Part shown: positions 8,425 to 33,819 of the stretch, in pieces
How positions within the stretch are numbered: the stretch's first letter is position 1
Layout of the letters: every line of letters begins with the position of its first letter
DNA from: Hydrurus foetidus
Lineage: Eukaryota
NCBI GenBank assembly: GCA_900617105.1
Contig: UYFQ01000298.1
Location: 1-33,819 of the forward strand
Length of the DNA stretch: 33,819 nt
Reading direction: 5' to 3'
Notes under the pieces: model-generated
Databases searched by the model: none
The model's input: only the letters and a program-made list of their open reading frames with translations
What the model was told of the DNA's origin: nothing
Translations under genes and position numbers: made by a program

Positions 8425-9166
8425 CCAGTGCTGCCAACAATGTGGTGGGGTCGGAAATGTGGTGGGTTCTCTCAAAATGCCCCATTTTGAACCCCCATAA
8501 ATATATTTCTCAAAAACTGAATATTTTATTTGAGTAATTAGATGGCTGTGATTCCATTTCCAAAATCAAATTTATTTGGAACAAATTTTGAAATGCAGAT
8601 ATTCCCTTAGGAAATGTATCGCTGGTTTTTAACTTGATTCTGGCTGCATTCTCAAGGTAAGTTAGATATCTTATCGTGTCAGAAATAGTCGTATTAGTTG
8701 GGACCGGAAAAGATTTGACGTACAAAGGAACGATTCAAGAGATAAAACGTATTTAGAGACAATTTACAGTGTTTTCGTGGATTCTGGACCGTGAATTTAC
8801 GTCATTTTTAGGGGGAAATACTGTAAATTGACTCTAAATACGTTTTATCTCTTGAATCGTTCCGTTCTACGTCAAATCTTTTTCGCGTCCCCACTAATAC
8901 GACTATTTCTGACACGATAAGATATCTAACTTACCTTGAGAATGCAGCCAGAATCAAGTTAAAAACCAGCGATACATTTCCTAAGGGAATATCTGCATTT
9001 CAAAATTTGTTCCAAATAAATTTGATTTTGGAAATGGAATCACAGCCATCTAATTACTCAAATAAAATATTCAGTTTTTGAGAAATATATTTATGGGGGT
9101 TCAAAATGGGGCATTTTGAGAGAACCCACCACATTTCCGACCCCACCACATTGTTGGCAGCACTGG
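8425..9166. mobile_element. Foldback element FB1 (742 bp, ~350-bp inverted arms, 4-bp TSD AAAC)
   Basis: CCAGTGCTGCC...GGCAGCACTGG; near-perfect arms around a ~42-bp spacer (8775-8816); AAAC at 8421-8424 and 9167-9170. Confidence 0.9.
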
Positions 9167-9256: not shown

Positions 9257-9474
9257 TGTGGCCTTGCTAGGTCTCAGGGCAACGGCAGCGGAGGTCTGCG
9301 GGCACGTGGACAAAGGGAAGATGCTGTGGGAGCTATTGCTATGGAAACGATGTGGTTAGCTTACAGGTAAACACAGCAGGTATCATGGCAATGAATCGTG
9401 TGGATCGGATCGTCCTCGATCCGAACCGGACGTACGCCTGTACCCGTACAGCCCGTACGGGTGTTCGGGTCACA
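9257..9474 (-). repeat. 3' LTR of Gypsy B (218 bp)
   Basis: Direct repeat of 20980-21196; preceded on the minus strand by the PPT GAGAGAGAGAGGGG (9478-9491). Confidence 0.92.
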
Positions 9475-9676
9475 GTGCCCCTCTCTCTCTCAAGGGGTGT
9501 AATAACTAACAAAATTCATCATCAAAATACTAACTATGAATAACTAACTAACTAATTGAATAACTATTTCAGACTAAGAACATAAAATTCCTTATTGAAT
9601 AAACCTCCCGAAAATCCTTGAGGATCAAGTTTAGGAGGAATCTTTATGATTTAGTAAATCAATTTGATTTTACCGG

Positions 9677-9978
9677 TTAACGGTAGTTCGCGATGAATTC
9701 GCGTGGTATCAAGTGTTTGAGATTCTTTTTGATTAAGAACTCATGTACTTTTTGCGATTTACGCATGTGTGTCCATGGTTCCCATGTATTGTGTTCATGA
9801 GTACAGTTGAGCCACTTTACATGAAATGTGAGCGATTTGTATGCTCTTATGTTTCCTTTCATGTCTAGGATATCTTCTATGAAGAATTCCAGATAATCTC
9901 TACAAGCAATGTCAGTTGGGTCGACATGTGTACGGTCAAAGTGAAACGGTTTTAGTTGGATCATGTGGTACAACTTTT
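9677..9978 (-). pseudogene. Gypsy B integrase C-terminus and chromodomain (separated from the core by the nested element)
   Basis: KLYHMIQLKPFHFD...FFIEDIL...FHVKWLN....NTWEPW aligns to the family A tail (FVVEKVL...FKVKWLNY....SWEQW). Confidence 0.9.
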
Positions 9979-10231
9979 TAGAGGATACCCGGAGCTCGCC
10001 GGAGGGTAGGATAGGTTCTCTGGACCGGAATTCCAAGTAACCGGGCATTCCCGTATAATCTCTAGTCTTCCATCCACATGATTTATTGTTGAGAGACGCA
10101 AGTCTCACTGCATAGCTACTTTAGATAGAAGCATCACATGTTTTGAAACCTGCGGTCTCGACTTGATTGCAGAGTTTTGTGCACTGCTCCTGCTTGCTAG
10201 TCATTGCAGCAGCGTAGCATGCTTTCATTTA
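9979..10231 (+). repeat. Split direct repeat A1 (253 bp)
   Basis: Matches 14756-15007 apart from one T indel and one substitution near the end. Confidence 0.95.
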
Positions 10232-13200
10232 GAGAGAATCTTTGCGAGACGGAAATGGTCGCGGAATGGGTCCTTTCAGATGACTGACCTACGGAAATGC
10301 CGAGGAAGAAGGAGTTCGCTCTTTCAATTGACTCGAGTAATGGGGTGGAGCCAAATAGCGAATTTTATCTCGGCACAGGATGCGTGTTTGTTATCGTGAC
10401 CTGCTACCTGGAAATGTCGTAGCTCAGTTTGGAGAATTCAGTGAGAAAGCCTTGAAGACGAAATGGAGGCTAATCAAGAGATTTTTCGACCAACTGTGAA
10501 CATTATCTGGGATCCGATACCGACCAATCGATGCGATTACCCATCGTCGATCAACCTCAGAGAGTACTACAGTTTAGAAGACAGCAGCACCGATCGAAAG
10601 ATGAAGATCAAGGTCGGAACCGCAATTTTGCGATGGGTTCCACACTCAACATCAGCTGCATTTTGTCAGTAATTTTATCGCACTATTCGAGGACTCTTTC
10701 TCTCGCTAAGGGGACGTCCCGCTTGCTCTCGCCATCGACCTGGCTGGAGATGATGCCAGCGAGAGTAGCCGATTCGAAACTGAGTACAGATTTAGTCAAC
10801 GATACATATGTTGTAAGTAAAAAGCAGATTCGATCCCACGACCCCCACGAACCTTTGATACTACGAGGAGTCCACTAGACCGCTAAGCTATGTGCGCTCG
10901 CGTGTGTTGAGGAGGAATATTATCGAAACACAAAGTTATCTAACTGAATGAAATAAAATAAAATAAAATAAAAAATTTGTTAACATAAAAACAAATAATG
11001 GTTGTAATTAGAAGGGAGATCAAGCAAAAATGCAGGGAGGTGATCAATTGAATGATAAATGTGCGAATAACAGAGAAGGAATTGAACCTCTACTAAAATC
11101 GCTTCATAAGAGGAATACGGAATATTATATAACTTTCTGTACTCCATACGAAATATGGGGTAATATTCCGTCACACTCCGATTTTTTTTGAAAACATTTC
11201 TGGACGTTCTCAGACACGTAGAAAATCATGATTAGCTGCTCAATCCGACACAAAGCTTCAACAGTTCCTCTCAATTAAATCAAAAATAAATAAATAAATA
11301 AATAAATGAAATCGTGGGTTGAAAAATAGAACAAAATGAAAAAATAAAATAAATGAGAGCGATTAAGTAGAAAATCAAGCAAGATACAGGAAGGAAATAA
11401 ATTGAACAGTAAAGAAGCGAATACGGAGGCTATATTCTGCTTTAATCACTGCACTTCTTATATCAAAGGTGCAATGAAATAGTTCGTCGAAGGAAAGAAA
11501 GAAGTAGTGGTTCGTTTTAGAATACGGAATATCATATGATTTTCTGTACTCAATACGAAATTCAGGGTATAATTTCGTCTCTGTCCGACTTTCTGGACTC
11601 CTTTGGAACATTAATGGATGATCGTAGACACAAGGCGATGAGATATCCGGGGTGTCATCGCCAGTGGTGGGTGTGCTGCTCGCGACAGCTTAGAAAAATA
11701 AAGATGATTGCACCAGAGCGGCACTGTACATGGAGGCAAAAAGCATTCTAGTACGATGAGAAGGCGGCTACCCGGTACAAGAAGACAAGAACGGATGCAC
11801 CAGAGCTGTACTTCCTACGGAAATATTCTTCTCTGTCTAGAAAGATGTGAAGGAGGGGGCTATCCTTGCGGAGGCTGCGAAAAGAAGTCCAACCCTGGTG
11901 ACGGTGCCGCAGGCAAGCGCGTCCGTTTGTTGGCTTACACGGTATGGCCCACCGGTTGTCTAATTATCAGGGCGTGCAGCGGACAGTGCTTCATCGCGGT
12001 GCACATCAGTGCAGCATGATGCAACACGGGCATGTCAGTAAAGCCCACTGCAGAGTAGAGTGGAGACCGCGTACCCGGAGATGGTTTCCGAGGAAAGACC
12101 GTCCCCTAAGGGGATTACCAACGAAGACTCCACAATCATGTCCATCGCTAGGGGCAGTAAAATTTTGCAGTAACGAAGATGAGTCCCTCGGGAGTGATGC
12201 ACAGTCCACCCTGGGTCTGATTGCATTGCAGAATTGTGTGCAACACAACACACTTTACATGCGGTGAGGTGTGGCGCAGTGCGGTGTAGCGCGACAGTGC
12301 TGTGCGGCTAGAGACTGTGCCATGCGACAGTGTATAGAACTATGCCGTGAGGTGTAATGCTGTGCAGTTCGACGATGTACAGGACGGGCTGGTTTGAATT
12401 CGCCCTCAAATCTCTAGGTCAAGTACATGACAGGCACTCGGACAGTCTGTCGCAATGTATCCCGTCGAGAAGGCAGCACCACAGTGAGCGGCGCGCAAGA
12501 CATTGTCTTCTAGGTGAGAGTGTATTGTTATAAGGAAATCGCAAGCGATCATGATAGTGATAAGTTGATTCGAACTTACGGCACCATGGTGTTGGTGGTG
12601 TGCGTATGCGTTGATGCTTTGTGGATTCAACACGATTAACCGATGTTGAATCCACACCCTGCGTAAGCAAAGAATGATGAGTATCATTTGAATGCGTACA
12701 ACATAGCAGTGATGGGTGTGACTGTCTGTGCATGTGTGACAGTGGCGTCTAGTGTATACTGTAGCCACTGTGCCTTGAAGGCGCAGCGCGGGCTGAGTAT
12801 ACACTATCTGAGGCGATGGAGCCGAAGATAGTAGACTGTCTTGGTGGGGCAGTCTTCACATGCGCAAGAAACAGCCCCATAGTGTTGTTTGGTGTGTTAG
12901 TTATGGGTGTGACTGTCTGTACATGTGTGATGAAACAGCCGGATGGTGTGGTATGTACTGTCTGTAGCCGTGTGGCTACAGAAAAAGCATTGGCCCAGTA
13001 CATGCTGCGACGGCTGGTTTCACTTGTGCAAGAAACAGCCCTGTAACGTATTAATGCAGTCTATGCACCTGTAACAAGCTTGATATGACAAGCCTCTGAT
13101 TGTACTTGTGTTATAGCACCTTGCACTGTCTACGGTACCTGTGTGTAACCGTAGAAAAGGCCCGACTGTCAATGTGAATGACAGTCCTGCCGTCAAATTG

Positions 13201-14493
13201 GCGGTAGAAAGCTCAGTGCATTGTATGTGTGTGTGCTATAGCCGCGTGGTATACTGTAGGTGTCAGTATACCACGCGGCTATAGCACTGGTAAGGGCGCA
13301 AGCACACGAGTGCGAAGCCCTTACCATAATCATATAAGAGAGCGGAGACTCATCATACCCGCACCAACATCACTTCTCAGAAATAAAGCGCGATGGTCGA
13401 CCGTCTCCGCAGATGGGCTGGCACATGGGCACGTTGAACCAGCACGAGGTGTGACAGAGGGCGCTGAGGTGTGGGGGGTGTCAGCGCATGATATCTAGAA
13501 ATTGAAAAATAAAGATGTCGAGAACTCTGGCCGGCGTCGTCGACCAGACGTACTGCAACCTCAGGGTCACATTGACGACGTACTGGCCTTTGGTGAGAAG
13601 TCAAAGGCCATAATAAGTTTAAAAAATAAAAATAAAAATGGATGTATCAGGAATGATAAAGGAGAGAAAAGGTAGACCCAATGAACGGGAGAGATCGTAT
13701 CCGGAATGGTCCGATTTCAGGCAAAGGATGGCATATCTGGCGAGCATGTTCTAGTGTGACTTAACCGTCCAAATCGGAGAGGACAGGAAGAAATGAAGTG
13801 GAGGGATGGATGTATGCTCGAAGAAAAACGATCTTAGATTCGTAGTCGGGGCCGCGTGTGGATCCAACAGCTTGCAATTGGGAATGCAGCATGCAATGTC
13901 GCTGTGCAGTGCGGTGCAGTAAGTGCAAACAGAGTAGTGAAGTGCAGTGAGATAGTCAGTGCAGTGCGGTGTACAGTGCAGCAGTGCGAAGTGCACAGAG
14001 AAAAGCAGTACAGTGAAGTGCAGTGCAGCGGTGCTTAACACGATGCTGTACAGTGCAGTACAGAGAGATGCAGTACAGTGTAGTGCCGCAAAGTGAAGTG
14101 CTAGTGCGTGACAAATGTTGGAGTAGCCCATCGTAGTCTCTTAGTCAAGAGGGTGAAGCTACAACGAGAATTATGGTAGCTGTGCGTGACAGGCGATCCA
14201 GCCTGGATTATGTCAAGAAATGAATACGGGCAGATAGGAGTAGGGTCAGAGCAGACTTGCTTAGGCAAAAGGTCGCAAGAATGGTCTCCCGCCAGATTGC
14301 TTCAGTGCGCATTTTTACAGAAAGAGGGGTGAGGTGCATCATTCCCATGCGCATACCGGGTGCCAATAAGGATTATCACGGGGACAGAGGGAAGCACGCA
14401 GCGGGATCTCAAGATATCATCACCCGAGCATGGTAGCGAGGAGACCGCTACCAACAGCATCAAGATAACCAGCAGCGCCCTAGGTTGTGGTGG

Positions 14494-15340
14494 GTGAAGG
14501 GCTTATCTGGGTCCAGGATCCATCCTATGCCAGCGCAGCCGACTGAGTCGGTGGCTACGCGGATAGGGTGGGCGGGCACTGGCAGGCGCGCGAGTGACGC
14601 CACCTGTAGGACAATCCAGTTACTTAATTATTAATTCAGAGTCCGATATCATCTGTACCTTATCGGTTTGAGGGTTATCTGATATGCTAATACCGCTAAC
14701 CGGAAGGTACGGTATCATATGACCGGGCAGCGGCCGGAATGCAGTGGAATAGAATTAGAGGATACCCGGAGCTCGCCGGAGGGTAGGATAGGTTCTCTGG
14801 ACCGGAATTCCAAGTAACCGGGCATTCCCGTATAATCTCTAGTCTTCCATCCACATGATTTATTGTTGAGAGACGCAAGTCTCACTGCATAGCTACTTTA
14901 GATAGAAGCATCACATGTTTTGAAACCTGCGGTCTCGACTTGATTGCAGAGTTTGTGCACTGCTCCTGCTTGCTAGTCATTGCAGCAGCGTAGCATGCTT
15001 TTATTTACCCCGTAGCCAACCATGCCTATTATAGATTTTTTGTAAACGTGTTTTGTCTGACCGCACGTGCGCCAGCCAGTGAAGGGCTTATCTGGGTCCA
15101 GGATCCATCCTATGCCAGCGCAGCCGACTGAGTCGGTGGCTACGCGGATAGGGTGGGCGGGCACTGGCAGGCGCGCGAGTGACGCCACCTGTAGGACAAT
15201 CCAGTTACTTAATTATTAATTCAGAGTCCGATATCATCTGTACCTTATCGGTTTGAGGGTTATCTGATATGCTAATACCGCTAACCGGAAGGTACGGTAT
15301 CATATGGCCGGGCAGCGGCCGGAATGCAGTGGAATAGAAT
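14494..15340 (+). repeat. Split direct repeats B1 (14494-14755), A2 (14756-15007), 71-bp spacer, B2 (15079-15340)
   Basis: B copies are 262 bp with one substitution seen (catatgAccgg / catatgGccgg). Confidence 0.95.
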
Positions 15341-18158
15341 CTTTGTGTGTTACCAGATCGAGTAATGTATACTCTGCGAAGTTATGACTTATAACTCGCA
15401 TTGGGCCACGCCACAGTGTGTGCATGCGTGTTTCTGGTGTTGTTCTTTTTTGCACGAGCACAAATGTGTCGACTCCGAACTGTGTGACGTTGGGAGGTTG
15501 TTGTGCATTGTGCAAGTCGTCGGATTCCTTGCGTAGACGTGCGGTGATTTCGATGAGTTCATCTTGCAACGTTAACATTTTATCAGTTGACCGTGTGAGT
15601 GAGTCGAAATATAAATCAATTTCATACCTCGGAAGGAGGATGTTTGCGTCGAGGTCGATCGCGTTGCCGTAGATGAGTTGTGCCGGAGACACTTTCATCC
15701 GGTCATTTACGGTTGAATTTAGTATTCTTTGTACAAACGGTAATATTTCTGCGTAGTTTTCCGTAGTTGCCCGTTCGTATGCGTACGCGGTTATATGGCG
15801 ATTGATTTCTTTGTTGATACGTTCGACGATAGCGTTTTCTTCTGAACAGTATGGTAATATTTTGTTGTGTGTTGTTCCAAGAATTTTCACAAACTCATCT
15901 ATGATGTGGCTTGCGAAGTGGGGTCCATTATCTGATCGAAGTATACACGGTGAGCGGTATCGCCCCACGTGTTCTACAAGTGCTGTGCACGCTGATTTAG
16001 CTGTTGCATCAGGTGTTGCGTAGAGTTCGACAAACCTTGAGGAAGTGTCGATCATAACAAGGATATATCCTTTATCAGGGAATGGGCCAATGAAGTCTAT
16101 GTTAAGGCATTCCATTGGTTTATACGTTGACGTTGTGTATCTGTAGGCGTTGATTTATTTCATCGCCGACATCTTTTCGCAACAAGGACAATTTTTTACG
16201 AATGTTTTCACTGCGTTACGCATTCCCATCCATATGTTATTTGTTTTCTTTAAACTTTTCTTTAAAAACGTAAGTTTTTGTGGTCTATTAGGATTGTGAA
16301 TTTACGATCTCGCAGCAGTGCGTCGAGATAAGTACAGCAATAATATAGCGCGAAGGCTTCTTTTTGTATTACTGACCATTTCAGTTGAGTCTTGGTAAGA
16401 GACTTGCTGACAAGAGCGACGAGTTGTTTTTCTCCGTCGACTTCTTGATACAAATAGCCGCCGATCCCGTAATCCGACGCATCGGTCATAAGGGTTATGG
16501 CCGCTGTATCGTGTATGAAATATAATAAAGGACTCCTTGCAATATGATCTTTTATCTTTTGAAAAGAATTTGCGGCGTCATCTGTCGAGATTAGCATCGA
16601 TTGCTTTTTCGCGGCGTGATCAATCATTTTATGTGTCTGCTTTTTGTGAACCTAATCTTGCTAACATTTGTTTAATATTAGGGATTGGCCAGCTTGCTGA
16701 TTCCGTTGCGTCGTTGAGGTGACGATAGTCAATACAGAATCGGTATGAACCGTCGGGCTTTGCCGCAAGTGTTACTTGCGAATAGTATGATGCCTCTATG
16801 TTGTACCCTGTTCAAGCATAGTTTCAACTTGTTTGCGGATTTCGACTTGTTTTCGTGTAGACGTTGGTCTGGGTGCCACGCGGTTTTTGAAAACTTTCCA
16901 CTCTGGATCCCGTATGGGTAGTCCAAAGGGGGGAATTCGCGCGGGCTCTGGTCCGAGTTTGTTGTTGAATAGCTTTATGTGTTTAACACAAATTGCTTTA
17001 ATTCTTGCTTTTTGTTCAGGGGCACCATCGATTTGTATTAGATCGATGAGGTACATTTTGTCCTCTGTCGGATTGTCTTGGAAAGGAGCGAAGGTATCCT
17101 TCGACTTGTAGTCAATCTCTTCGGGTCCGAAGGGTTGAACCTCTGGGAGTTCTTCACGCTCCCGGAGTAGAGCAGCAACTAAACCACGTGTTTGGGCTGG
17201 TGCCTTGGATGAGGGAGTAGGAGTAGCTACTTCCGGACTCCTGTCGGTTGTTAGACCTAAATCACCTTGTCGGGGAGGTGACAACAAAACTGCTGCCTCT
17301 ACCGTAGGGTGCAAAATGAACTCATCAGAATCTAGCCTAGCCGCTGCCGCAGCTAAGCTAGTGGGACACCCACATGAAGTAGTGCATGTCTTGCTTGTAC
17401 AAGCACCTCGAGCCACCAGGTCGTCTTACCATCGACTGTCTGCGTCTGAGGGTTTTGTCCCCTCCAGGCTAGTTATAACCGGAGGTAAGGTTGGATCTTT
17501 AATACTTGTGACTGTGTCCGACTCTGCTTCTAGCAGGAGTGGAACGTCCACTTGATTTATCACCATGTTTGTGGACTGGTCGAGTTTTTGTATTTTTGAC
17601 ATGTGTGTCATGTTTTTTCTGTTACTACGTTTTCTGGATTTTGGAGGAATTCCGGAATAAGTTTGACAAAATTTAATTTTCTAATAGTCTGTAATCCTAA
17701 GATTAAGTCGACTTTTGAATCTTCTGCAATTCGCACCGGAAGAGAAAAAGTGTGTTGATAAGAGTTTTTTTAAATGATACAATAATATCAAGCACACGTG
17801 TTGATTTAATACATTGGTTGTTTAAACCCGAGCACATCCATAAGGGAGTGTCTGTTGGGCGCAGGTGGGGTTCGCCCCGTAGGTCCCGGAGGACTATACG
17901 GTTGATTACGTCCCCGACCTGGCATCCGGTGTCGATTTGGGCGAGTGCGTCGATTCCCTCACTTTGGGGCGTACTTTGAGGACGACGAGGATGAGGAGGA
18001 GCTAGCATTGGAGTCTCGGTCGCGGTTGGAGAAATCTCTGTCGCGGTTGGAGACGTCTTTCTCTTTTTCCGTGTTGCGCGAGTCGTCTTTGCGGCTGGAG
18101 TCGCGGTCGCGACTGTTGGAGTGACTGTCGTTGCGATGGTTGGGCTGGAAGTTTGCCA
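15341..18158 (-). pseudogene. pol: Gypsy B pol remnant: protease, RT N-terminus, RNase H, integrase core; RT core and RH-IN linker deleted
   Basis: AQIDTG (~17930); YRFCIDYR (~16730); jump from GSQKADT to MIDHAAKK at ~16630 removes the YxDD region; TDASDYGIG; CLNIDFIGP, SDNGPHF, ENAIVERINK. Confidence 0.92.
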
Positions 18159-19833
18159 TCAGGTCTGTGGAAGAGATATGTGTACTTGTAAGTAATCCTC
18201 TATATTTTCAGGCAGTACTGCGGAAAGTAACATTTGCATGGTGGGTGTGCTGCGACTTTCGTCGAGGTTTTTCACATGCATAGCGGTAAGGTGTAACTTA
18301 CTTTTGCCTTTGTAGTTTGAGTTTGCGTGGGAACCACTTGGCTTGTTGCCACACTCGCTGTTGCGATCGTCTGACTGACGATCGTTGTTGCGGTTGTTGA
18401 ACTTATTGTTGTTGTTGTTGTTCTTGTTCTTGTTGTTGTTGTTTGGGCGGCGTGGGTCCTGGGTCTTAGGAGGTCCCATGTCCATCTCAACGTCGTCGAC
18501 TGGGTAGACGAACGTCGACGCACCCGGATAGTTTGTGAGGTGGGTTTTCTCGTTGTTGACATAGGTCTCGTGTTTAAAGTGGGAATGCCCGATGCGTTTG
18601 AAATCCTGCCCAATGGAAGAAGTGTTCCATGTGGCGTGGGAGCTGTTGCAGTGCGGGTTCATAAAGAGCGGACAGTTGTACCGATTATGAGTTGTCATTC
18701 CGCACGTGTGACATACGTCTGTTGTTCGGCTAATGCCTTCGTTGTCGGGACGACGTTTGGGAATGGTCTTGTATGATGCGGATAGGTCAGTGGACGCGGA
18801 TGTGGACAGTTGGGTATCGGGATCTTCTTAAGGGGGAAGCTTGGTGGTGAAGGTATAGCTTAGTCCCCCCATCTTGTCAGCGTCCGTAACTGTCTCGCGT
18901 GACGCTTGGAGACAGATGACAAGACGGGCGAGCATTTCCCTGATGTTGTCCTTTTTCCTTTCTTTGGCTGCCACTTTGGTCAAGTCCATGAAATTTTCAG
19001 TGAACTTGTTGCCTGGTGGGAGCTTTTTGTAGAATATCTTGCAGATATCGTCCTGGCGATCAGTATCGATGTTGTCATACTTGTTGTAGAACCCCAGGAT
19101 AATGTCGCGGAACGCGGCGATGGAAGTGTGTTCCAGTGCACCGTTCAGCCAACTGAATTTGAACTGAAATTTCCTCAGTTTGAGGTCGACGTCGTATGTG
19201 GATTGCGTACGTCTGTTAATGAAGTAGATTGTTTTAAGATCTTCTGCCATTTCTTTCAGAGTTAGCTCACCATCCGGTAACTCTGGCCACGTCATACATT
19301 GGGCGGGGGTGTAGCTGACGAGCTTCGTATTTTGCAAGAGTCCATCACGAATGGTGTCGAGTGCCTTATCCAGCGACTGCCAACCCGCGCTGAAACCAGG
19401 ACGGTGTGCCTGTTGGTAGGACAGGCGGGCGGACCCGTCCATGTCCTTCAACAGTACGTCCCTACCCATGTAGGACGCCTCCTTCATGTTGAAAAGGGAG
19501 GTCGTCATGTTTTGGTGACGCGGGATTTGGTTACGTTGGGGTTGTTCGATGCCCGCATCTTCTGTTTTGCGTTTGCGTATAGGGTTCTCCACGGCCTTCG
19601 GTTTCGAAGCCGGGACCTTTTTCGCTGGTGCTTTAGCAGTGCGTTTGGCAGGTTTGGCCGTGCCTCTTGAGGGTGGTTGCTCTGGTGTGGGTTTGACTAC
19701 TCGGGGGGAGCGTCTTTTGGCAGGTGATTTGGCCTCTGCGGGCTTTTGGGTGTCGGGTTTGGCTGTGAACGGATCTTCGGAGTCGGACGGGACTTGACTA
19801 CCTTCATCCGATGAGGGTTCGTTGTAATTTTCA

Positions 19834-19880
<47 letters not shown>

Positions 19881-20344
19881 TTCCTCACCGGTTTCCTCCT
19901 CCCTGCCCTCCTTGTCTGATTCAGGGTGGGAGTCCGATGTCACTTTGCCGTCGGCTGTTTGATCGTCCTTATCGCCGTCTCCCTCCTCGTCATTCTGTTG
20001 GGTCGGATTGCCACCTTGGTTTTCCTCCTTGTCGATGTTGTCGAGGTTGTCCGGTGATAAGGTGGCGGGTTCACGGTGTGAAACGACCTCGCCAGTGATC
20101 GACATGAATTCGGAAAGACTTTTTCCTTTTCATCTGTCTCGCCCTCCAATATGGAGAGACGTTTGCGCTCTGCTATGCGCGTGTTATGCCTCTTGGCTTG
20201 TTTTGCCTTGTGGGCTTTTTGTTCGTCTTCGATGCGGCTTTTAGTGTCTGTAGCCTTGATGGCTTTTTGATGAGCGCCACCGTCGAAGCTGCGATATTTT
20301 CCTCGCATCGCCTGGCGACTTTTTTGAGACGTTCCTTTTCCCAT
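17959..20344 (-). pseudogene. gag: Gypsy B gag with acidic tract, CCHC zinc knuckle and Asn-rich region; candidate intron 18165-18301
   Basis: ORFs 18828-20105 and 18159-18698 are in one frame, separated by an in-frame TAA; CHTCGMTTHNRYNC = CX2CX4HX4C; (GAGGAC)n coding repeat at ~19835-19880. Start codon uncertain. Confidence 0.8.
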
Positions 20345-20979
20345 TTGAGGGTCAGGCGTTCATCACCTAGAAGCGAAGAGTTGAAGCTGACCGAGCTAGA
20401 GCTCTGTTTCTTGTCTTTTTGGCTCCATCTTGAATTTTGGTCGGGACTTATTTTGATGGAACTGAGCGTCTTCGACAGCGACGGAACTCGGACGCGGTGA
20501 TTCAGGGAAATTAGGAGTAGGTTCGTCAGGGATGGAGACTGGTAGGTTAAGAGTGTGGCAGTAGAAGTCAGGGGGATTGGATTACTTTCGTGCGATTTCG
20601 GGAGGAAATCGCGTCGAAAGTTGGGAGCGTTGGACGGCTTCGTGGGCAACGAAGTTGGGCAGGCGCGTTGGAGCTTTCGTTTTAGAAACGATTTGTATGG
20701 TTTCACTTGCTTGCAAATTACTCTCTTTCTTCAGCCTTCGTTTTCTGAAGAGCTCGAGGAGATGTCGTCGAAAGTCGTCGGGACGAACTTCTAAACGAGG
20801 GCGTTCTGGAGGCTGTCGATTTGACAGAGTATTTCTAGTGTCGTTAGACGTTGTTTTCACTTTAAAAAGTTACTCGCTTTCGCTTGGCACGACTGTTCGA
20901 CGGTCGTGGCAAGGATTTTTTTGTTGATTTTGGCAACTGGTCTCTGAAGGAGATCCTAGTTGGTTCCAAATACCGGTAT

Positions 20980-21196
20980 TGTGGCCTTGCTAGGTCTCAG
21001 GGCAACGGCAGCGGAGGTCTGCGGGCACGTGGACAAAGGGAAGATGCTATGGGGCTAGTGCTATGATAGTAATGTGTTTAGCTTACAGGTAAACACAGCA
21101 GATATCATGGCAATGAATCGTGTGGATCGGATCGTCCTCGATCCGAACCGGACGTACGCCTGTACCCGTACAGCCCGTACGGGTGTTCGGGTCACA
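20980..21196 (-). repeat. 5' LTR of Gypsy B (217 bp)
   Basis: Direct repeat of 9257-9474. Confidence 0.92.
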
Positions 21197-21458
21197 GGGG
21201 GCTCTCTTCTACCCAGAGGGATTCTCACACTGGTCCCGCCTGATTTTTGAAAAAATGAAATACCCTGAAGCGATCAGCGGTTTTGCATATGCAGTTGGCA
21301 TGTGCATTTGGCATTTGCATTTGGCATGTGCAGTTGGCATGTGCCGTTACAGCAAACAGGAGCACAATTTTCATCCAGCAGTCATACACAGGTAGGAGCC
21401 AGTCCCAACTTTACAGCACATTCTTATACTTCGGTGATTAAATATTCCCTCCGACGTC

Positions 21459-24260
21459 ATGAATTCATCGGGAATTAGTTTCGAAGCATTCCTTCAATCA
21501 GAAGGCATCTATGAGAAAACGATCGAAGAATTGTATGATTGTGAAATTATCTTCCTTGCACGTGAAAGCATTCATGTTGCATTCTTCGTACACTTTATGG
21601 CAGATGAAAAATCTTGGCTGGCATTTCAGAAGATTTTATTCGATCTCGTGTCATCATATCTTGAATCCTACAGCAAAAACGTCTCGTTGACCCAAGGTGA
21701 TATAGAGAAACGAATGAAATCTGGTAAAATTGTGGTTACTAAGTTTGAGCAAGACCGAAATGTTTCGCGCGGAATATATGAAAAAAAGTTTCTTCAGTTG
21801 CCCTTGATTAAGTCTCTATTTGATGAGCCGCAGAACGATGAAATCAATCGCAGTATTAATGAACAGGGCCGTTTACTTTTCTGCTATTTAGAAGACCTTT
21901 CCTAAAAAAACTTCTGGACTTGGCATCATCAAAACAAAGGACTGCATGTTGACAACTTTATCACTGAAAGGGCGTCTGACATAAACTTTGACTATTCGGA
22001 GACCATGTTGCATAAAGTTTACGATATTACGGGCTATTTATGTGGTCATCGGATTTATAACCTTATACATTTAAATAGATTGAGACAAGACTACGTTGAA
22101 ACTTTCCAGAATTACCGTATTTTAACCCTTCACGCAAACGGCAATGATGCTTTAGCTCATAATCTTCCGGTCTTATGTATTTCATTTCGTGAACATTCGG
22201 AGGGACTTTATTATTCCAAAGCTGATAATTTTAATTTTATAAAAATTGTTCAAGGCATTTGGATGCAGTCATTGACAACAGATGTTTCAATACTCTTCAA
22301 TGCATTCGAGCCAGTTAAGCGCGTACATAAAGTCATACTAAATTCAAAAAATGTTCAACTTGCATTCAAGAAATTTATGTTGCAGGATTTATTTAAGGAA
22401 AACATGAACCTTGCAGATGACGAGAATCCGATATCTTTTCTATTTCAGTTTATCATAAATGGATTTATTCGAACGCACGTAAGAGACATATATATATGTT
22501 ACGACTTTCTAATGCTCTACTTAGCAAAACAGGCGCCTCTGGTATTAGGACAAATTTGTCATCATTCAGTGCGAAATCAGTTGCACTCAAACAGAATACC
22601 AATAATGTTAAGCTTCTTACCAAAAATGTATCCAACGACTTAGTTAATAGTCAACAAGGTAATCGATCGTCATCCTCGTTATCCTGTCCTTGCGGGAAAG
22701 TTTTTGTACGCGCGTCATGGTTTGAGAGACATGCATTAAATTGCAATATATCTCGTAAGATTGTATCACCTTTAGATCAAGAATCCGCAATAATGGAAAA
22801 TTTGATTGGTATGAATTATTTTGATCAGACATTCCAGAAATTGGAAGGACACACAGCAACAGGATTAATCCAGATACAACTTATTTCAATAAAAAATTAT
22901 ATGTTAGTTTTTTTTTATTCTAGAGTATTTGGAATATTTAATTTTATCTAAGATTTCTAATGTGTTATTTATATTTCATTTGTCAACAGGTCCGAATGGT
23001 AAGCCTGGCAGGAGGTCAGCTAGACTACTGTGTTTATCAGTGTTTTAATACATCAATGACGTCTTTGGATATATATACAGCACTAAGAGAAGTATTGATT
23101 GCAACAGCAACATTACAATTCGACATTATAGCAATAATAGCTGATGGAGCACAGTGTAACCGACAGTTTCAAAAGAAATATTTCACCGATGGAAATAGCG
23201 ACTATTCACATATGAAGCACCCAATAACTCATCAGCCTATTTATTACATCTCTGATCCATCTCATATGATTAAAAAAATTGTATCGAGCTTATCCAGTAG
23301 AAATAGAAATATATTTAAAACTGTCGACAATAAAGACAGAAGGGTATCTCTAACAGTCATGTTCGAACTCTGGATGTCCTTTAATGATAATTTAGGATTG
23401 AATAGTTCAAATTATTCAAGACTATTGATTTTCTAAAGAATTCTTTCCAAGGTATGAGAGTTGGGCCTTGTATAAAAGTTCTGGGACCTAAAATGATTGA
23501 GATGATGATAGACTTAGCTTTACTATACAAAGAGGAATACAAAATTTTCAATAATAACAAAGAGAACGAAAATAAATTGAATCCTTACGAATTCTGCAAA
23601 GATGCAGACTTGTATTTAGGATGGCGTGAAGCATCGCAATATTTCACAAATCTTTTCAATATCTTAAATTCTACTAAAAATAGACTCAATACAACAAATT
23701 ATTCTGAAAATTATCAATTTCTAATAGAATTTCAAAAGTAGTTTACAAATTGGAAGATAGAATGCATCGACAGAAAAAAAAAGAATTGCCTGCAATTCAC
23801 ACAGCCTATGAAGGAATGACTGGATTCTGTACGGCAGAGGCAGCTGAGGATTGCCTATCTATGATTTAAAGTTTGAATAACAACACTGGTGACTATTTTT
23901 TCTTTCTACCCCGCCGCATAAGTCAAGACTTAGTTGAAAATGCTTTTTCAAAAATTCGAGTCGCGATAGGCCACGGTAGATTGGACCACATTACAACGTT
24001 TAATGTGTGTACAGAGGTAAGTATGATAAAGGAAGTTAAAATAAGTGAATGATCTTCAAAGAGAAGGAATGCAGTGGGTGGGCAAATTTAAAAAATTAAT
24101 TCAAATAAGGATTATTTATCTTATGATGACATGTAGAAAAAATAGCTTCAAAAATCGCAGTGTAATTTATGAAAATTCAAGTAAACTCCTTTGGAAAATT
24201 GTGAATGGTCTTAAAATGATAGAAAACAAAATGCAAAATTTAAGTCGTGATCACAATTAA
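21459..24260 (+). pseudogene. P-like transposase gene B: YxxGY-type domain, C2HC finger, then catalytic second half
   Basis: YDITGYL...EGLYY (22020-22215); CPCGKVF....FERH...C (~22685-22745); probable intron 22903-22989; IIADGAQCNR (D at 23143), YISDPSHMIKK, MRVGPCIKV, RRISQDLVENAFSKIR (E at 23936). Several frameshifts and stops. Confidence 0.8.
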
Positions 24261-25492
24261 AATCACATATGCATACATACAAAAAAAAAAAGCTAAATTC
24301 AAAAACGAGTGTGTACAACAGAGTAAAAAAAGTAGTCACATCAGTCGTATACGTTATCAACACGTAAATGAGAAATTAATGAGGCGTCAAATTCATTTTT
24401 CTTCTATCTTCATCTGTTTCTCTGCATTACGAAAAATAATTTCGCTATCCTTTCCAGGGTATTCACCCAATTCTTCAATGTCTATTTTCTTTCTTTGCAT
24501 CGTCAGACTTCAAATCATAAAAGTCTTGATAAATTTCGTTTTTAATTCCGTGAGGAGCAATTTCTGCTAATCCGAACACTCTACTCCTTGTAACAGAATA
24601 TATTATACCATTTGTAATAATCATATCATCTATAAGAAGTGCTGAATGTTCCTTACTAAGTTTACCATCTAATCTTGCAGATCTAGATGCCATCAATAGA
24701 TTATTCAGTTGGAGTCCAACCTCACAATTAAAATTTGATTTGTATCTATTATAATAAAAATTAGATTGATTATAAATGAAGGTTTTTAATTGATTTAAGA
24801 TGCATTCTTACTTTGTTAAGGTTGACCAACATGGTAAGGATCTAAGCGTGGCCTCCTTCTCGTAGTTTACTTTTCCTAGATTGTGTGCTAATTCCAGAGA
24901 GTAATTTAGGATTCTAGAAGACAACTTCACTGTTCGAATTCCTCTTTTGTTACCGATTTATTATAATTGCCTAATTGCGATGTTTCTGATCTAATTAATT
25001 CTTTGTGTAATAAGAATTTTTCAAAATCTCCTTCATGTTCTTTCTCTATAAGTTCATCTTTAAAAGTATAAAATTTAAACCATTTATCAGATTCCTGGTC
25101 ACTAATATTTATGAAGGCTTTTTTATCGTGCCCAACTTTACGCCATTGGGCAACTGCTGACTTCAGATCTTTGCATCAAGACTTCCAGTAAGAAACTTTT
25201 TTTCTTAACTTATTCATTATTTTCTTTTTTTCTATTAAGATCTTTTCATTTTCAACCGCTAATTGTTGGTTTTTCTTTTTCAATTCTTCAAAACTATTTG
25301 AACTTTTTTAAAGTGATTTATTATGTTCACTCAGTAAGACTTTTTTGTTTGGCTGCAAACCTGTAAAATTTCTCCAGAAAATTCTACAAGATGCACATAC
25401 TGATACATCACTGCTACCTGCATCGCATCGGATAAAGCATCCCCAATTCTGCATATGATATTCATTAAATTTGTCATTATTCTTGAATAATA

Positions 25493-26236
25493 CCAGTGCC
25501 GGTAATAACGCGGTTTCGGTAAAAACGCGGTTATTCGACCCGGCAGGTCCGATATCTCTCCAAATTCTTCATGAAAAAGTTTTTGTCAAACATTCTCACA
25601 GGTAATTCGATAGTTTTACATTCGCTTCGATTATTAAAGTTTTCTGAAATTGATGATTTCATCACGAGATCGACATTAGTCACTTCTGGCGATTCACCAA
25701 TGTCGGATATAGATGAAGCAAGAGTATGCTTTAGTTATTCTATCTTGTAGGCAGTAGTCATATTATTATGGACACGCGAGGGTTTCGTACAAATCGCGAT
25801 AGTCACTGAGATGCATCAGTTTCAGAGACCAAAAATGTGCCTTTTTAACGTATTCGGGATGCGATTTCCCAATATTTCGACGAAAAAGGCACATTTTTGG
25901 TCTCTGAAACTGATGCATCTCAGTGACTATCGCGATTTGTACGAAACCCTCGCGGATTCATAATAATATGACTACTGCCTACAAGATAGAATAACTAAAG
26001 CATACTCTTGCTTCATCTATATCCGACATTGGTGAATCGCCAGAAGTGACTAATGTCGATCTCGTGATGAAATCATCAATTTCAGAAAACTTTAATAATC
26101 GAAGCGAATGTAAAACTATCGAATTACCTGTGAGAATGTTTGACAAAAACTTTTTCATGAAGAATTTGGAGAGATATCGGACCTGCTGGGTCGAATAACC
26201 GCGTTTTTACCGAAACCGCGTTATTACCGGCACTGG
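25493..26236. mobile_element. Foldback element FB2 (744 bp, 354-bp inverted arms, 4-bp TSD AATA)
   Basis: CCAGTGCCGG...CCGGCACTGG; spacer 25847-25882; AATA at 25489-25492 and 26237-26240; removal with one TSD restores the gene A frame (SPSALLFKNND). Confidence 0.92.
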
Positions 26237-26549
26237 AATAGTGCACTTGGGCTCGCAGCAGCAACTATATATTCTAAAAATAATCTTTTTTTCATTCTTG
26301 GTAAGATAAAGCCAATGAAAGTACTATTTTTTTTAATCGTACTTGCATTATCAAGTAGTACACACAATTTTGTACAATAATTTGTATTTCGATTCTCGTC
26401 ATTAATTAATATATTTAAATTAGTCCGGCATTCTTCAAAGTGCCATATCTTTAAGGGAGATAAAAAAAATCCGGTGCACTTGGAAACCTAAAAAATAAAA
26501 ATAACATTATGAAACACCGATAATAACACGCAGAAACCATAAACAACAT

Positions 26550-28133
26550 AATAAGAAGTACACGCGCATCATTGATGTTCTGCTACAATGCACTTTACAT
26601 ATATATCTCGCACCTCATTTGATATCAAAGCTTGGTGAGGAGTGCTTGGGACCTCAGGGCTGACCCAAAAGTAGGGGGGAGAACGTACGTGTACCTACAG
26701 TATAATGCACTAGATGTAAGCTACTAGAAACACAATAAGAAGTACACGCGCATCATTGACGTTCTGATACAATGCACTTTACATATATATCTCGCACCTC
26801 ATTTGATATCAAAGCTTGGTGAGGAGTGCTTGGGACCTCAGGGCTGACCCAAAAGTAGGGGGGAGAACGTACGTGTACCTACAGTATAATGCACTAGATG
26901 TAAGCTACTAGAAACACAATAAGAAGTACACGCGCATCATTGACGTTCTGATACAATGCACTTTACATATATATCTCGCACCTCATTTGATATCAAAGCT
27001 TGGTGAGGAGTGCTTGGGACCTCAGGGCTGACCCAAAAGTAGGGGGGAGAACGTACGTGTACCTACAGTATAATGCACTAGATGTAAGCTACTAGAAACA
27101 CAATAAGAAGTACACGCGCATCATTGACGTTCTGATACAATGCACTTTACATATATATCTCGCACCTCATTTGATATCAAAGCTTGGTGAGGAGTGCTTG
27201 GGACCTCAGGGCTGACCCCAAAGTAGGGGGGAGAACGTACGTATACCTACAGTATAATGCACTAGATGTAAGCTACTAGAAACACAATAAGAAGTACACG
27301 CGCATCATTGACGTTCTGATACAATGCACTTTACATATATATCTCGCACCTCATTTGATATCAAAGCTTGGTGAGGAGTGCTTGGGACCTCAGGGCTGAC
27401 CCCAAAGTAGGGGGGAGAACGTACGTGTACCTACAGTATAATGCACTAGATGTAAGCTACTAGAAACACAATAAGAAGTACACGCGCATCATTGATGTTC
27501 TGCTACAATGCACTTTACATATATATCTCGCACCTCATTTGATATCAAAGCTTGGTGAGGAGTGCTTGGGACCTCAGGGCTGACCCAAAAGTAGGGGGGA
27601 GAACGTACGTGTACCTACAGTATAATGCACTAGATGTAAGCTACTAGAAACACAATAAGAAGTACACGCGCATCATTGACGTTCTGATACAATGCACTTT
27701 ACATATATATCTCGCACCTCATTTGATATCAAAGCTTGGTGAGGAGTGCTTGGGACCTCAGGGCTGACCCAAAAGTAGGGGGGAGAACGTACGTGTACCT
27801 ACAGTATAATGCACTAGATGTAAGCTACTAGAAACACAATAAGAAGTACACGCGCATCATTGACGTTCTGATACAATGCACTTTACATATATATCTCGCA
27901 CCTCATTTGATATCAAAGCTTGGTGAGGAGTGCTTGGGACCTCAGGGCTGACCCAAAAGTAGGGGGGAGAACGTACGTGTACCTACAGTATAATGCACTA
28001 GATGTAAGCTACTAGAAACACAATAAGAAGTACACGCGCATCATTGACGTTCTGATACAATGCACTTTACATATATATCTCGCACCTCATTTGATATCAA
28101 AGCTTGGTGAGGAGTGCTTGGAACCCCAGGGCT
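26550..28133 (-). repeat. 184-bp tandem array, 8.6 units; each unit is a 103-nt intron plus an 81-nt exon of gene A
   Basis: Unit starts 26551, 26735, 26919, 27103, 27287, 27471, 27655, 27839, 28023; only a few substitutions between units. Confidence 0.9.
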
Positions 28134-29382: not shown

Positions 29383-32300
29383 TCAGTCTTCTAAGACTGA
29401 TGCCTCAAGATTCTTGGGGATTAAATGTTTCATTTTATTGTCCCTCAAGTATTCATGGAGTGCTTCACAAAGCCGTAGGTTTTTCCACTGCTCCCATGAA
29501 TAATGAGTGTCATCATAATTAAGCCATTTGACTTTGAATGACATTGTCGTAGGCTTCTTTTTGTCACCTGAGTGACTAAGAACCTTTTCCACTACAAATT
29601 CCATGTAGTCACGACGAGCAGTGTCAGCAGGTACATCGACCTCTGAATCATAATTAAATTTTTTTAAATTTTTAATATGTACACTTCGCTCCTTGTGTGT
29701 GACAAGGTTTGCGAGGATATACTCGGACCCTTTGTAGGAAATAACACGGTACTGGCCATGCCACGTAGTGTGTAACCGAGTAGGCGGTCGATCTGTGTAA
29801 CGACATAAAACATATGTCCCTATAGGGAACACTGTCGCACACTTAGCTGATGCCGCGTGTTTAGCGTCTGCTGACACCAAAGCTTGAACAGCTGAATCAA
29901 GGACCTTGTCCTGAACGCTGATCAAGTCCTCAATGTATGTTGACCTAGAATGTGTATTCACACTTAAGTGTGGTGTTAAAATACCACGATTCAAGTCAAG
30001 CTTGTTTCCGAACAGTAAATGTGGGGGCGCAACTTTAGTGCGTCTATTAACTGAACTGTTAATGATGCGTTGCACAATTGGGATTGACTTAGCATGTCCC
30101 TCTAGGGTCTGTTTATCAAAAACACGACCTCTTAGGTGTCTATTTACCTCTTTGTTGACTCTCTCAACAATCGCATTTTCCTCTTTCGAGTATGCGAGGG
30201 TTAAATTATGTGGCGTACCACAAAGATCTAAAAAATCTTTTATTAAATCATTTGCGAAATGGGATCCTCGATCCGATCGTATCATGTTTGGCGAGCCGAA
30301 ACGGCCAAAATGAGAGAGTAGGCAGTCGGCCGCTGATTTTGCGTCTGCATTTGCACACCAAAATAGTTCAGTCCAACGTGTGAACGTGTCGATAATGACA
30401 AGGGTATAACCTTTGTCTGGGAATGGACCGATATAGTCAACATTCAGCGTATCGAAGATAGCATAATTCGACGTTGCAAAGTGAGTAGCATTGCTTTTGA
30501 CAACACGGACAGTTCTGTATGAACGTACGTACATGTTGTTTCATGTTTTTCCAAACTTGTTGTAGACTGAACAACCGAGTAAGGGTACGATCTACACCGT
30601 TGTGACCAACAAACGCATTGTGGCACATTTGGATGTATTCTAACTGATCGTCTGACGCTGGGTCGATAGCTGTCAAAGCTGACACAGTGACCGACGACGA
30701 CGAAGTTGGAAGTAATTCCAATTCCGTTATTCGTAACGGTAATGCGATTTCTGTCAAGTTAGGACATAATCGCGACAATGCGTCGGCTAAGGCATTTGAC
30801 GTGCCAGGTACGAAGACAACCGTAAAATGAAGTTCTTGCATAGCAATGAACCATCTTGCTACCATTGAGGTAGGGTTTTGTTTCATATACGTGATATTCA
30901 AATGATCAGTATAGATTGTGAATGTACGATCTCTGATTAAGTAATCGAGTTGTGTACAACAGTAGAATATAGCATACGCTTCTTTCTGTATAGTTGACCA
31001 CCGTATTTGTGTTGGTGTCAATGATTTGCTTATAAAAGCTATCGGTTGCCAAATGGTATCAACCACTTGGAAAAGGACACCGCCGATTCCAAATCAGACG
31101 CGTCTGTATATAATCGGATATCCAATTTATTGTCATCAATGAAGTACATTAATGGACAACGAGATATCGCGATCTGTGTATCGTGAAAGCTGTTGGTACT
31201 CGTTTGAGTCCATACAACGGCCGAACGTTTCGGTGCAGAATGATCTATCATATCTTGCATTGGTTTAACCAAAGTCGAATGCATAGGTACAAACTGTCGA
31301 AAATAGTTCGCTAATCCTAAGAATGATCTTAACAAAGTTAAGTTCTTAGGTATAGAAAAGTTTAATACTGTTTCTATTTTTTCTTTTGACATGGATAAAC
31401 CATCTTTGTCAACCACTCTGCCAACGTATTCAATACGAGGTAAACCAAAGCGGCATTTCTTTGCTTTGAGTCTAAGACCCTTAAGTCTGAATCTTTCAAA
31501 GACTTTATTCAAGTTCTTTAGAAACTCTGCTTCACCCTTGCCATATACTATGCAATCGTCGAGATACATCTCACAACAATGATAGATAAGGCCATAGAGG
31601 ACCGCCGTTACCATCTGCTCTTGAAAGTAAGAGGGGGCACGACACGGACCAAAGGGTAGTCTCGTGAACTGAAAAACCCCCGCAAAGCATATAAACGCTG
31701 TGAATATGCGGTGTGCGGGGTGTAACGGTGCTTGATGGTAACCCGCGGTTAAATCCATCACACCAAAAATATCCGGTTTTTTATTACCGATCCTCTCAAA
31801 AAGATGTTTGATATTCGGCAGGGGAAAAGAGGCGGGAGTCAGGCACTTATTAAGTGGCCGGTAATCGATGCAGGTTCGAAATTTACCGGGTGACTTAGTT
31901 ACGATTACAGGATGACTGTAATAAGCAGCATCTGACCGCTCTATAACCCCCGACGCAAGCATCTCATCGAGATTCTCCTTAAGAGCAACCTCCTTAGTCG
32001 ATGACTGGGGACGTACCGGCGTACGGTTTTCGTCTTTTTCCCACAACTCAAGGGGATGTTAATCTCAAAAGGTTTGAGTGACGCTGGTTTCTCAGCTAAC
32101 TGATCACTAAAAATGTCTGAATATTCAGAACAGAGCTCTCGGAGCTTCCTCTGAAAGCTTTCATCTCCCTCAAAGGTAATCTCGTTGAGGAAATCCTCTG
32201 GCCCTTTGGGCAAGTCATCTTGACTAGGTTTCTCAGCTAAGAAGGGTGCGAACGTGTCTATCTTGCCATCGTCAATCTCGTCAACTGAGAGTGCGACACC

Positions 32301-33819
32301 ACTGGGCCATAAAGGCTCAGTGACATAGTCTAAGGTATCAGAATCCCCAAAGGTATGTGTAAGGGTGGGAATCTGGTCGCCACCTAGGTGCGGTGTATCA
32401 CCCGTACGTTTTGCGAGAATAGTAGTGACACTATTCAGTCGCTCACAACTTACATCACCACAGGAATTTTGGGTCGCGACTCCCTCAATATCCTTTTGGG
32501 TATCGTTACATGTCGACATTGAATGGACACAGGAGACGTTGCTCTTCGAAGAAGATTGACCAAGCAAAACGCTCTTCTTATATGGGTACTCTTGTACTCC
32601 ATATGTAACCCTCTTTTTAGAGGCAGGTTTACCGCCTGGATATTTCAGCTTGTCATAATGAGGCGTGATAGACTCGACTTCAGCTGTATCTGGTTCGGCA
32701 CCCAACGCTATCATTTGACGCGTATACTTATGTTGATACATGGGATCAAGTTTCAACAAAGCTTCCTTCTTATCGAAGTCGCGTTTGCGCGCATCGCTTT
32801 TCTTTTTGTTCTCCGCGCTAAGTTCTGGCGATATGCCGAAAGCAAACGGAGTCAAAGACCAAAAATCATACTTATTTACCGTCTTACGGCTAAACAAAAT
32901 TTCAATTTCGGTTTTTCTATTAACCCTCATGGGTAAGCTGATGCTCTGGCATTCGCCATCGTAAGAATGAAAAAGGATTTTTAAATCGCAAATTTCGTTA
33001 TTTACATAACATTGACCATCGAGGCCGCTACAAACAGTGATAGCTGTAGGAGCGGGGTAACAAAGGTGAGTGGCATTTAATTTTTCTAACATAGTAAAAG
33101 AAATAAAATCCTCCGAGTAATTCGCGGTGTCCAGCACGGCTCTTCCAACGGCACGCAGCTCGCTTGCTGGGCCAGTCCTATCCTTATCCTGCACGATAAC
33201 AGTTACGTTGAGGTGATGAGAAGGAAGGACAGATGGATTATGCAAAAATTCTTCACGAATAGTTACATGTGGCTGTTCTTCAACATGACTATCCATCAGA
33301 TTATGGGAATCATTGTCAAAGACAGCAGCCACGTCATCAGAATAAAGGTTCTTACCTTGATCCTGACCTGAACTGGAGGAGGAGGGAGGGTTGTTTCCTT
33401 GTGGGGGTTGTATTTGTTTCCCCTGCCACCGGATCCACGACCCTGGTTTTGGTTTGCATTGGGGTTGTATCCTCCCCTCTGCTTACCTCTACCCCCTCCA
33501 TGGTTGCCATGGTAACCACCTCCCTGGTTACCTTGGTTTCCCTGGTTTTGGTTATACCCCCCTTGTCCCTGGTTGGAACGATCTGAACCACCAGAGGCAT
33601 TGGGGTTGTTACCGCCACCATGGCTGTTTTTGGGGCGCTTGTTGTCGTTAGACATCAAGTAGGGTTTAGAACCCTTAGGGAGTAGCAGAACGCGATCTTC
33701 GTACCCTGGGAGTACGAGATGTTGTTGCCATTCTGCAAACCCTACCGCTGCCCAAGCCATACCCAATGTAGAATCCTCCCAATCAGCCGAATGGTCTGTA
33801 TTGGAGTCGGAGTAATACA
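29383..33819 (-). pseudogene. pol: Gypsy A gag C-terminus and pol (PR, RT, RH, IN, chromodomain), near intact
   Basis: G/N/Q-rich gag tail; VLDTAN; FRTCIDYR, MDLTAGYHQ, LPFG, YLDD; YTDASD; HNGV...CPCC; SDRGSHF, ENAIVERVNK; chromodomain. Three 1-nt slips and one ~23-nt deletion. Confidence 0.95.

Follow-up and report, generated by a model that had tools for sequence, protein, structure and literature searches.

A conserved, predicted Gag-only intron in a clade of chromodomain-bearing Ty3/Gypsy retroelements

The gag/protease boundary of family B and its relatives

The window analysed here, a stretch of 33,819 nucleotides (nt) of Hydrurus foetidus contig UYFQ01000298.1 (assembly GCA_900617105.1), carries a complete-length, decayed long terminal repeat (LTR) retroelement, designated family B, on the minus strand from 21197 to 9257, together with sequence of a second family, A. 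Family B and its relatives show the Ty3/Gypsy domain order gag, protease (PR), reverse transcriptase (RT), RNase H (RH) and integrase (IN), and the position of the integrase after RT-RH excludes the clade from Ty1/Copia. A chromodomain (PF00385) was found at the integrase C-terminus, at 9680-10120 and 29386-30540 in the window and in the relative P0218. As stramenopile chromodomain-bearing Gypsy lineages can be unrelated to chromoviruses (PMC12477816), the clade was not filed as chromovirus.

At the gag/protease boundary of family B, a donor AAAA/GTAAGT at 18301 and an acceptor TCTCTTCCACAG/ at 18165 delimit a predicted intron of 137 nt, which is in phase 1 and has a length of 3n+2. Past the junction, the frame stays open for 67 more codons (LMANFQPNHRND...SSSKYAPK) up to a TGA at 17961-17959, and the unspliced frame reads through a T/P/A-rich stretch into the protease motif, with a TGA at 18161-18159. 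Family A has a counterpart of 167 nt, again 3n+2, with the donor CAAG/GTAAGA at 33355, the acceptor TGCAG/ at 33189 and a TAA right after the junction codon. For family B the sites, length and phase, the open frame to 17959 and the TGA at 18161-18159 agree with the first-pass annotation of the window. The Mo25 host gene in the window likewise has GTAAG donors. A single GT..AG pair lies within chance, and the evidence for the intron is its conservation across relatives.

Relatives at 41-48% identity run from gag into protease in one frame. P0218 is one open reading frame (ORF) of 1886 amino acids with gag, RT, RNase H, integrase and chromodomain; besides it there are 120 further long relatives, and ORFs at the loci described below reach about 1,800 codons. 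With gag to chromodomain in a single ORF, the clade lacks a recoding signal and must obtain its excess of Gag, which LTR elements are established to require over Pol (PMC12786077), by a different route.

In the long relatives, Gln or sometimes Lys closes a hydrophobic strand that lies upstream of the catalytic Asp, and ~30-55 residues before the strand end there is a dipeptide such as SK, GK, CK, SE, RE, GN or GT. From 121 polyproteins examined, 31 were dropped for want of a motif match or of 110 residues upstream; Gln directly follows the strand in 75 of the 90 usable ones, as compared with 263 of the 860 control windows. At the donor, Ser, Gly or Cys is encoded in the DNA set and Arg is found in some polyproteins, and as these four are the residues of the NGT codons, a constraint on the nucleotides of the donor would be indicated.

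The DNA set was drawn from one metagenome scan that gave 29 loci, 26 with a usable protease motif (in L010, L024 and L029 the motif is broken or upstream sequence is lacking). Together with the two window elements, these form 28 rows that fall into 17 families at 85% identity, with a median of 35% between families and 27% between A and B. The acceptor codon, picked from the protein only, ends in AG in 16/16 blind families, and over the 28 rows it is CAG in 26 and AAG in two. CAG accounts for 149 of 459 Gln codons elsewhere and for 60 of 181 following hydrophobic runs, and the product of the background fractions over 16 families is 2e-8. The AAG acceptor, encoding Lys, occurs in the family comprising L004:607-1062 and L007:2099-2554, and P0224, P0226 and P0228 likewise have Lys at this position.

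On the donor side, each family was represented by its first locus, and the top U1-like site 60-260 nt upstream proved to be in phase 1 in 17/17 families. Among control windows this holds for 76/158 in pol and 29/68 in gag (p 8e-6 with 16 families and 5e-7 with 17). The implied introns measure 86-167 nt, are all 3n+2, and are U-richer and GC-poorer than their flanks in each of the 17 families. Neither the donor nor the acceptor of B has a variant at the 3% threshold in the contigs of X2 and X4 over 17930-18390. Judged by these tests, a candidate phase-1 donor and AG acceptor are conserved at the same protease position beyond the codon-usage controls. Retention of both sites in relatives and copies, and of a frameshifting length over 17/17 families, argues for the functional gag/protease intron that had been proposed.

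The first-pass annotation had further taken the introns of A and B to be independent occurrences in two dissimilar families. Yet the two proteases have a common DT(G/A)...CSGL(D/N) layout with equal spacing, the relatives include both A-like and B-like members, and the position and phase of the intron are identical across the clade. Shared ancestry is the simplest explanation of a common position and phase, and the A and B introns are probably related by descent rather than of independent origin.

Two further observations concern the junction region. Contigs of related subfamilies match the 3' end of the intron and diverge directly past the acceptor, leaving loose ends at 18162-18164. A direct join of 18164 to 18302 is not listed in X1, X5, X2 or X4; contigs drop rare forms, so intronless DNA copies may still exist.

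The protease loop and the spliced tail

A first structural model, made from the broken copy in the window with 15 rows, was unusable, having a predicted local distance difference test (pLDDT) score of 56. The model of the B-like protease of P0134, made with 75 rows, has a mean pLDDT of 81; in it a strand at residues 17-22 is folded just ahead of the acceptor Gln, and a low-confidence loop of ~50 residues (about 31-80, pLDDT 54-64) precedes the strand leading to DTG. The model resembles retropepsins, with Z 9-11.8 and root-mean-square deviations (rmsd) of 2.5-4.2 (Z 10.9, rmsd 4.0 and 102 aligned residues for the equine infectious anaemia virus (EIAV) protease). The alignments begin at model residues 8-11, which correspond to residues 2-6 of the proteases of EIAV, Mason-Pfizer monkey virus, Rous sarcoma virus and human immunodeficiency virus 1. 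On this model, the intron is predicted to span the N-terminal strands of the protease. The T/P/A-rich stretch had been described as a linker to the protease, but the model and the retropepsin alignments place it inside the protease as a disordered insertion, which measures 16-77 residues across families, and the location of this loop within the protease makes a dual reading cheap. As the acceptor strand is part of the protease fold, conservation of LQVHISLPQ in the protein proves nothing by itself, and the codon tests carry the argument.

The predicted tails measure 0-67 residues across families. An open second frame was considered as evidence and rejected, because synonymous shuffling yields tails that are no shorter (Fisher p 0.34; for B by itself, p 0.22). 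Their composition was compared with synonymous shuffles conditioned on an open frame. The 236 tail residues of 16 families include 78 Lys+Arg, versus 50.5 +/- 4.9 in the shuffles, and 15 hydrophobic residues, versus 47.8 +/- 4.1. When B is left out, the corresponding values are 64 versus 42.3 and 9 versus 35.8, and the B tail alone gives p 0.010 for Lys+Arg and p 0.007 for hydrophobic residues. The same signal is seen at the pol wobble position over the tails (purine in 162/236 versus 43%), an excess that purine-rich splicing enhancers could also cause. Thus, of the dual-coded segment described earlier, the constrained composition of an open frame stands, whereas the openness itself lies within chance.

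P0129 and P0140, two B-like proteins at ~46% identity from frameshifted gene calls, enter the tail frame and end in SSKYNPK and SSNQYVPK, similar to SSSKYAPK in the window. The pol residue over the B tail stop is variously E, R, D, S or N; at the protein level, it would nevertheless allow a stop in 15 of 16 proteins, counting near-duplicates. The metagenome and viral searches found no DNA of family-B-like relatives, and hence the case for a conserved long tail in B is built on proteins and contig variants. The tail is probably translated and constrained; it is not required, since family A has none.

Other features of the window

The features of family B are collected in Table 1. Its LTRs have TG...CA termini, and a C-run flanks them on both outer sides, as in a target-site duplication. 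The sequence 3' of the 5' LTR (20955-20979) does not start with TGG, and no self-priming match to the LTR of at least 7 bases is listed.

Table 1. Positions of features of family B and of the corresponding intron of family A in the window
Feature	Position	Strand	Remarks
5' LTR of B	20980..21197	-	209/219 columns identical to 3' LTR
gag coding up to donor	18302..20129	-	acidic N-terminal part, capsid-like part, zinc knuckle, N/D/R-rich end; TAA at 18830-18828; true start further upstream
zinc-knuckle-like CHTC...H...C motif	18672..18713	-	zf-CCHC_4, E 0.037, under curated cut-off; kept in relatives
splice donor GTAAGT (candidate), phase 1	18296..18301	-	amino-acid footprint K-S-K; no variant at 3% in X2, X4
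predicted facultative intron, 137 nt, 3n+2	18165..18301	-	unspliced frame: Gag end and first protease strands
pyrimidine tract and CAG acceptor (candidate)	18165..18176	-	footprint ISLPQ
in-frame gag-pol TGA	18159..18161	-	private to the window copy
dual-read segment	17959..18164	-	spliced frame: predicted 68-residue charged Gag tail; gag-pol frame: disordered protease loop
protease core	17611..17960	-	catalytic Asp codon 17933-17931 (DTG); frameshift near 17760 in the window copy
decayed RT, RNase H, integrase	15300..17610	-	domain matches
integrase end and chromodomain	9677..9997	-	severed from the rest by nested 5.4-kb insertion
3' LTR of B	9257..9475	-	polypurine tract just before
predicted counterpart intron in family A, 167 nt, 3n+2	33189..33355	-	stop directly after the junction codon

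The integrase of B is interrupted by the 5.4-kb insertion at 9977-15339, across which other copies join (loose ends at 15340). It includes split direct repeats, A1 (9977-10230), B1 (14493-14754), A2 (14754-15006) and B2 (15078-15339), which are >99% identical; no long ORF was found in it. Such a layout is known from Ngaro/PAT-type DIRS elements. The summed contig depth in X1 and X5 is ~20-30 times higher over pol than over gag (15300-20421), contig depth being a poor measure, and suggests many subfamilies with a common pol and divergent gags.

Elsewhere in the window, the plus strand carries at 1-2283 a third fragment of Gypsy pol, which shares ~80% identity with family A, and a degenerate telomere-like 7-mer array, (CCCCAAA)n, occupies ~1.9 kb inside the contig at 3500-5440, adjoining the Mo25 gene. 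At 26545-28133, a 184-bp unit is repeated 8.6 times in tandem, the copies being 99% alike. Two near-perfect (99%) inverted repeats at 8425-9166 and 25490-26239, with arms of 287 and 357 bp, are possibly foldback or miniature transposons. The AT-rich region 21438-24807, with several plus-strand ORFs of 110-245 codons, is possibly a decayed DNA transposon; the ORF scanned there (21906-22640) had no Pfam match. The best named matches of the Mo25 gene are from oomycetes and ochrophyte algae at ~50-54% identity, and others reach 74%. The runs that contain family B come from freshwater, sediment and biofilm samples and from one coded organism. Taken with the Mo25 matches, this would suit a free-living stramenopile of fresh water, perhaps a chrysophyte.

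Proposed route to excess Gag and comparison with known elements

The features described above are best accounted for, in our view with good confidence, by a conserved and likely facultative intron of this single-ORF, chromodomain-bearing Ty3/Gypsy clade, removal of which would shift the frame and yield a Gag-only mRNA with a charged tail. Unspliced RNA would serve for the full Gag-Pol polyprotein and as the genome. Splicing would remove the first protease strands and enter the other frame at the start of the disordered protease loop, where translation would stop ahead of the catalytic Asp, and the spliced mRNA would supply the excess of Gag for particles. The occurrence of splicing, its control of the Gag/Pol ratio and a role for the tail are what we infer from the sequence.

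A number of points weigh against this reading. The intron of B is the least U-rich of the 17 (24% U versus 13% in its flanks) and its last 60 nt lack a [CT]T[AG]A[CT] branch motif. The families are partly dependent, forming 7-8 clusters at 45-50% protease identity, and with just these deep clusters, at one third each, the estimate for the acceptor is roughly 1e-4 to 4e-4. In addition, third bases are not saturated: of 1034 conserved two-fold codons, 760 agree at this position. For L001/L003 the automatic pick of the acceptor codon was too far upstream, and a CAG was assigned manually instead. The weights used to score donors were chosen by hand after the general donor consensus, and row by row the top donor is in phase 1 in 25 of 28, with L012, L023 and L025 scoring higher at a phase-0 site on the far edge of the search window. 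The spliced frames of 17/17 families stop 13-73 nt ahead of the Asp codon, and this regularity had to be rejected as evidence, as it is expected by chance (joint P 0.16, shuffles). Finally, no junction is seen in the four RNA or presumed-RNA data sets, which, being contigs, provide no test either way: in the contigs of X17 and X18 only parts of pol and short pieces are present, with zero depth over 18058-19633, and X16 and X20 have no contig at the region.

If the motifs reflected protein constraint only, the strand, the Gln and K-S-K or K-G-K would be needed by the protease or a cleavage site, and GT..AG would be a by-product. The strand ahead of the acceptor does belong to the protease fold, and codons for hydrophobic residues are pyrimidine-rich; the pyrimidine excess at the wobble positions before the acceptor is modest (55/81 versus 56%, p 0.018). 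However, protein constraint cannot prefer CAG to CAA, and 28/28 rows end in AG where the background is about one third; nor does it account for a donor residue that is Ser, Gly, Cys or Arg, unlike residues that have exactly the NGT codons. We regard this explanation as quite improbable. Only a little less so is the possibility that splicing is real but attenuating or regulatory, giving an RNA that is non-productive or destined for decay, or else a truncated inhibitor, with excess Gag coming from elsewhere, e.g. from Pol turnover. Without early polyadenylation, the spliced RNA would indeed have a 3' untranslated region of several kb, a decay trigger discussed for the Arabidopsis element EVD (PMC5580714), but the spliced product would retain the whole Gag including the zinc knuckle, and the constrained tail composition fits a translated product.

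The least credible of the alternatives is that the TGA at 18161-18159 terminates Gag and that ribosomes read through this stop codon to make Pol, as in Tj1/Tosmo. The in-frame TGA is close to the gag/pol boundary, and readthrough is known in fission-yeast chromodomain-bearing Gypsy elements (10.1101/2022.12.06.519325). However, the site is a sense codon at all covering depth in X2 (four contigs) and X4 (one contig) over 17930-18390, and the close proteins P0127, P0132 and P0162 have Arg there; a stop conserved across copies, as in Tj1/Tosmo, is thus found neither in these contigs nor in the close proteins, and more distant relatives are also without it. Moreover, the TGA sits inside the protease, and the window copy bears further stops and frameshifts of its own; in X1 and X5, for instance, the family state at 18830-18828 is not TAA. 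Hence, between the mutation and the readthrough suggested for the TGA in the first-pass annotation, the former applies, and the TGA is decay specific to this copy.

Gag-only splicing has so far been described mainly for another class of jumping genes, in plants and flies. In BARE1, a Ty1/Copia element of barley, a 104-nt alternative intron is spliced, as shown by reverse-transcription PCR, and the stop follows three residues past Gag (PMC3735527). The predicted intron would work like that of BARE1 in giving a Gag-only mRNA, but it belongs to Gypsy elements, covers the first protease strands, leads into a tail of 0-67 residues overprinted on a loop and is deduced from sequence. EVD/COPIA93 and Arabidopsis Ty1/Copia elements that form shGAG have protease-centred splice sites conserved superfamily-wide, with a frameshift and an early stop, as would be the case here; in EVD, however, the intron takes out the protease entirely, and its splicing is linked with early polyadenylation, and no such conserved splicing is reported for Arabidopsis Ty3/Gypsy elements (PMC5580714). 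Of the hallmarks of BARE1 and EVD, this clade has a single gag-pol ORF and, in 17/17 families, conserved candidate GT-AG sites near the gag/protease boundary with a predicted non-3n intron, as well as an early stop that chance alone would also give.

Among Gypsy elements, Ogre, CRR and those with env subgenomic RNAs likewise use host splicing, but Ogre splices between ORFs, CRR removes rt and the env RNAs express a third ORF, none of these being described there as a frameshifting Gag-only splice (PMC3735527, PMC12786077). Chromoviruses and, unrelated to them, the Ectocarpus and oomycete Chronos lineages share PR-RT-RH-IN and a C-terminal chromodomain with the present clade, some as a single ORF. 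The strategies listed for chromodomain-bearing Gypsy elements are -1 frameshifting, stop readthrough or an unexplained single ORF, in contrast to the splice predicted here (10.1101/2022.12.06.519325, PMC12477816). In the literature, no Gypsy element was found to be described with a frameshifting intron that yields Gag only, with subscription papers and supplements outside the search. The conserved feature is most likely a Gag-only splice in a Ty3/Gypsy clade, by a mechanism already known in Ty1/Copia.

More tentatively, and with a probability below even, splicing may change Gag besides increasing it: an exon overprinted on a protease surface loop would add a basic/charged, hydrophobe-free C-terminal tail, an RNA-binding or nuclear-targeting module absent from Gag-Pol, and selection on the tail would have grown the loop from about 16 to 77 residues, making this a clade-wide overlapping-gene design in protist Gypsy elements. 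The overprinted tail in the protease loop is the least proven part of the finding. If it holds, the dual-read segment would neatly exemplify overprinting where a protein loop is permissive.

It is largely unexplained how Gypsy elements with a single ORF produce Gag in excess of Pol, and frameshifting and readthrough cannot apply there. The predicted intron would be readable from its amino-acid footprint, S/C/G/R-K ~30-55 residues ahead of a strand-ending Gln, and annotations in this clade can easily misplace the boundaries of the protease and the end of Gag. A fixed intron position across this Gypsy clade, if true, would represent convergence between the two superfamilies.

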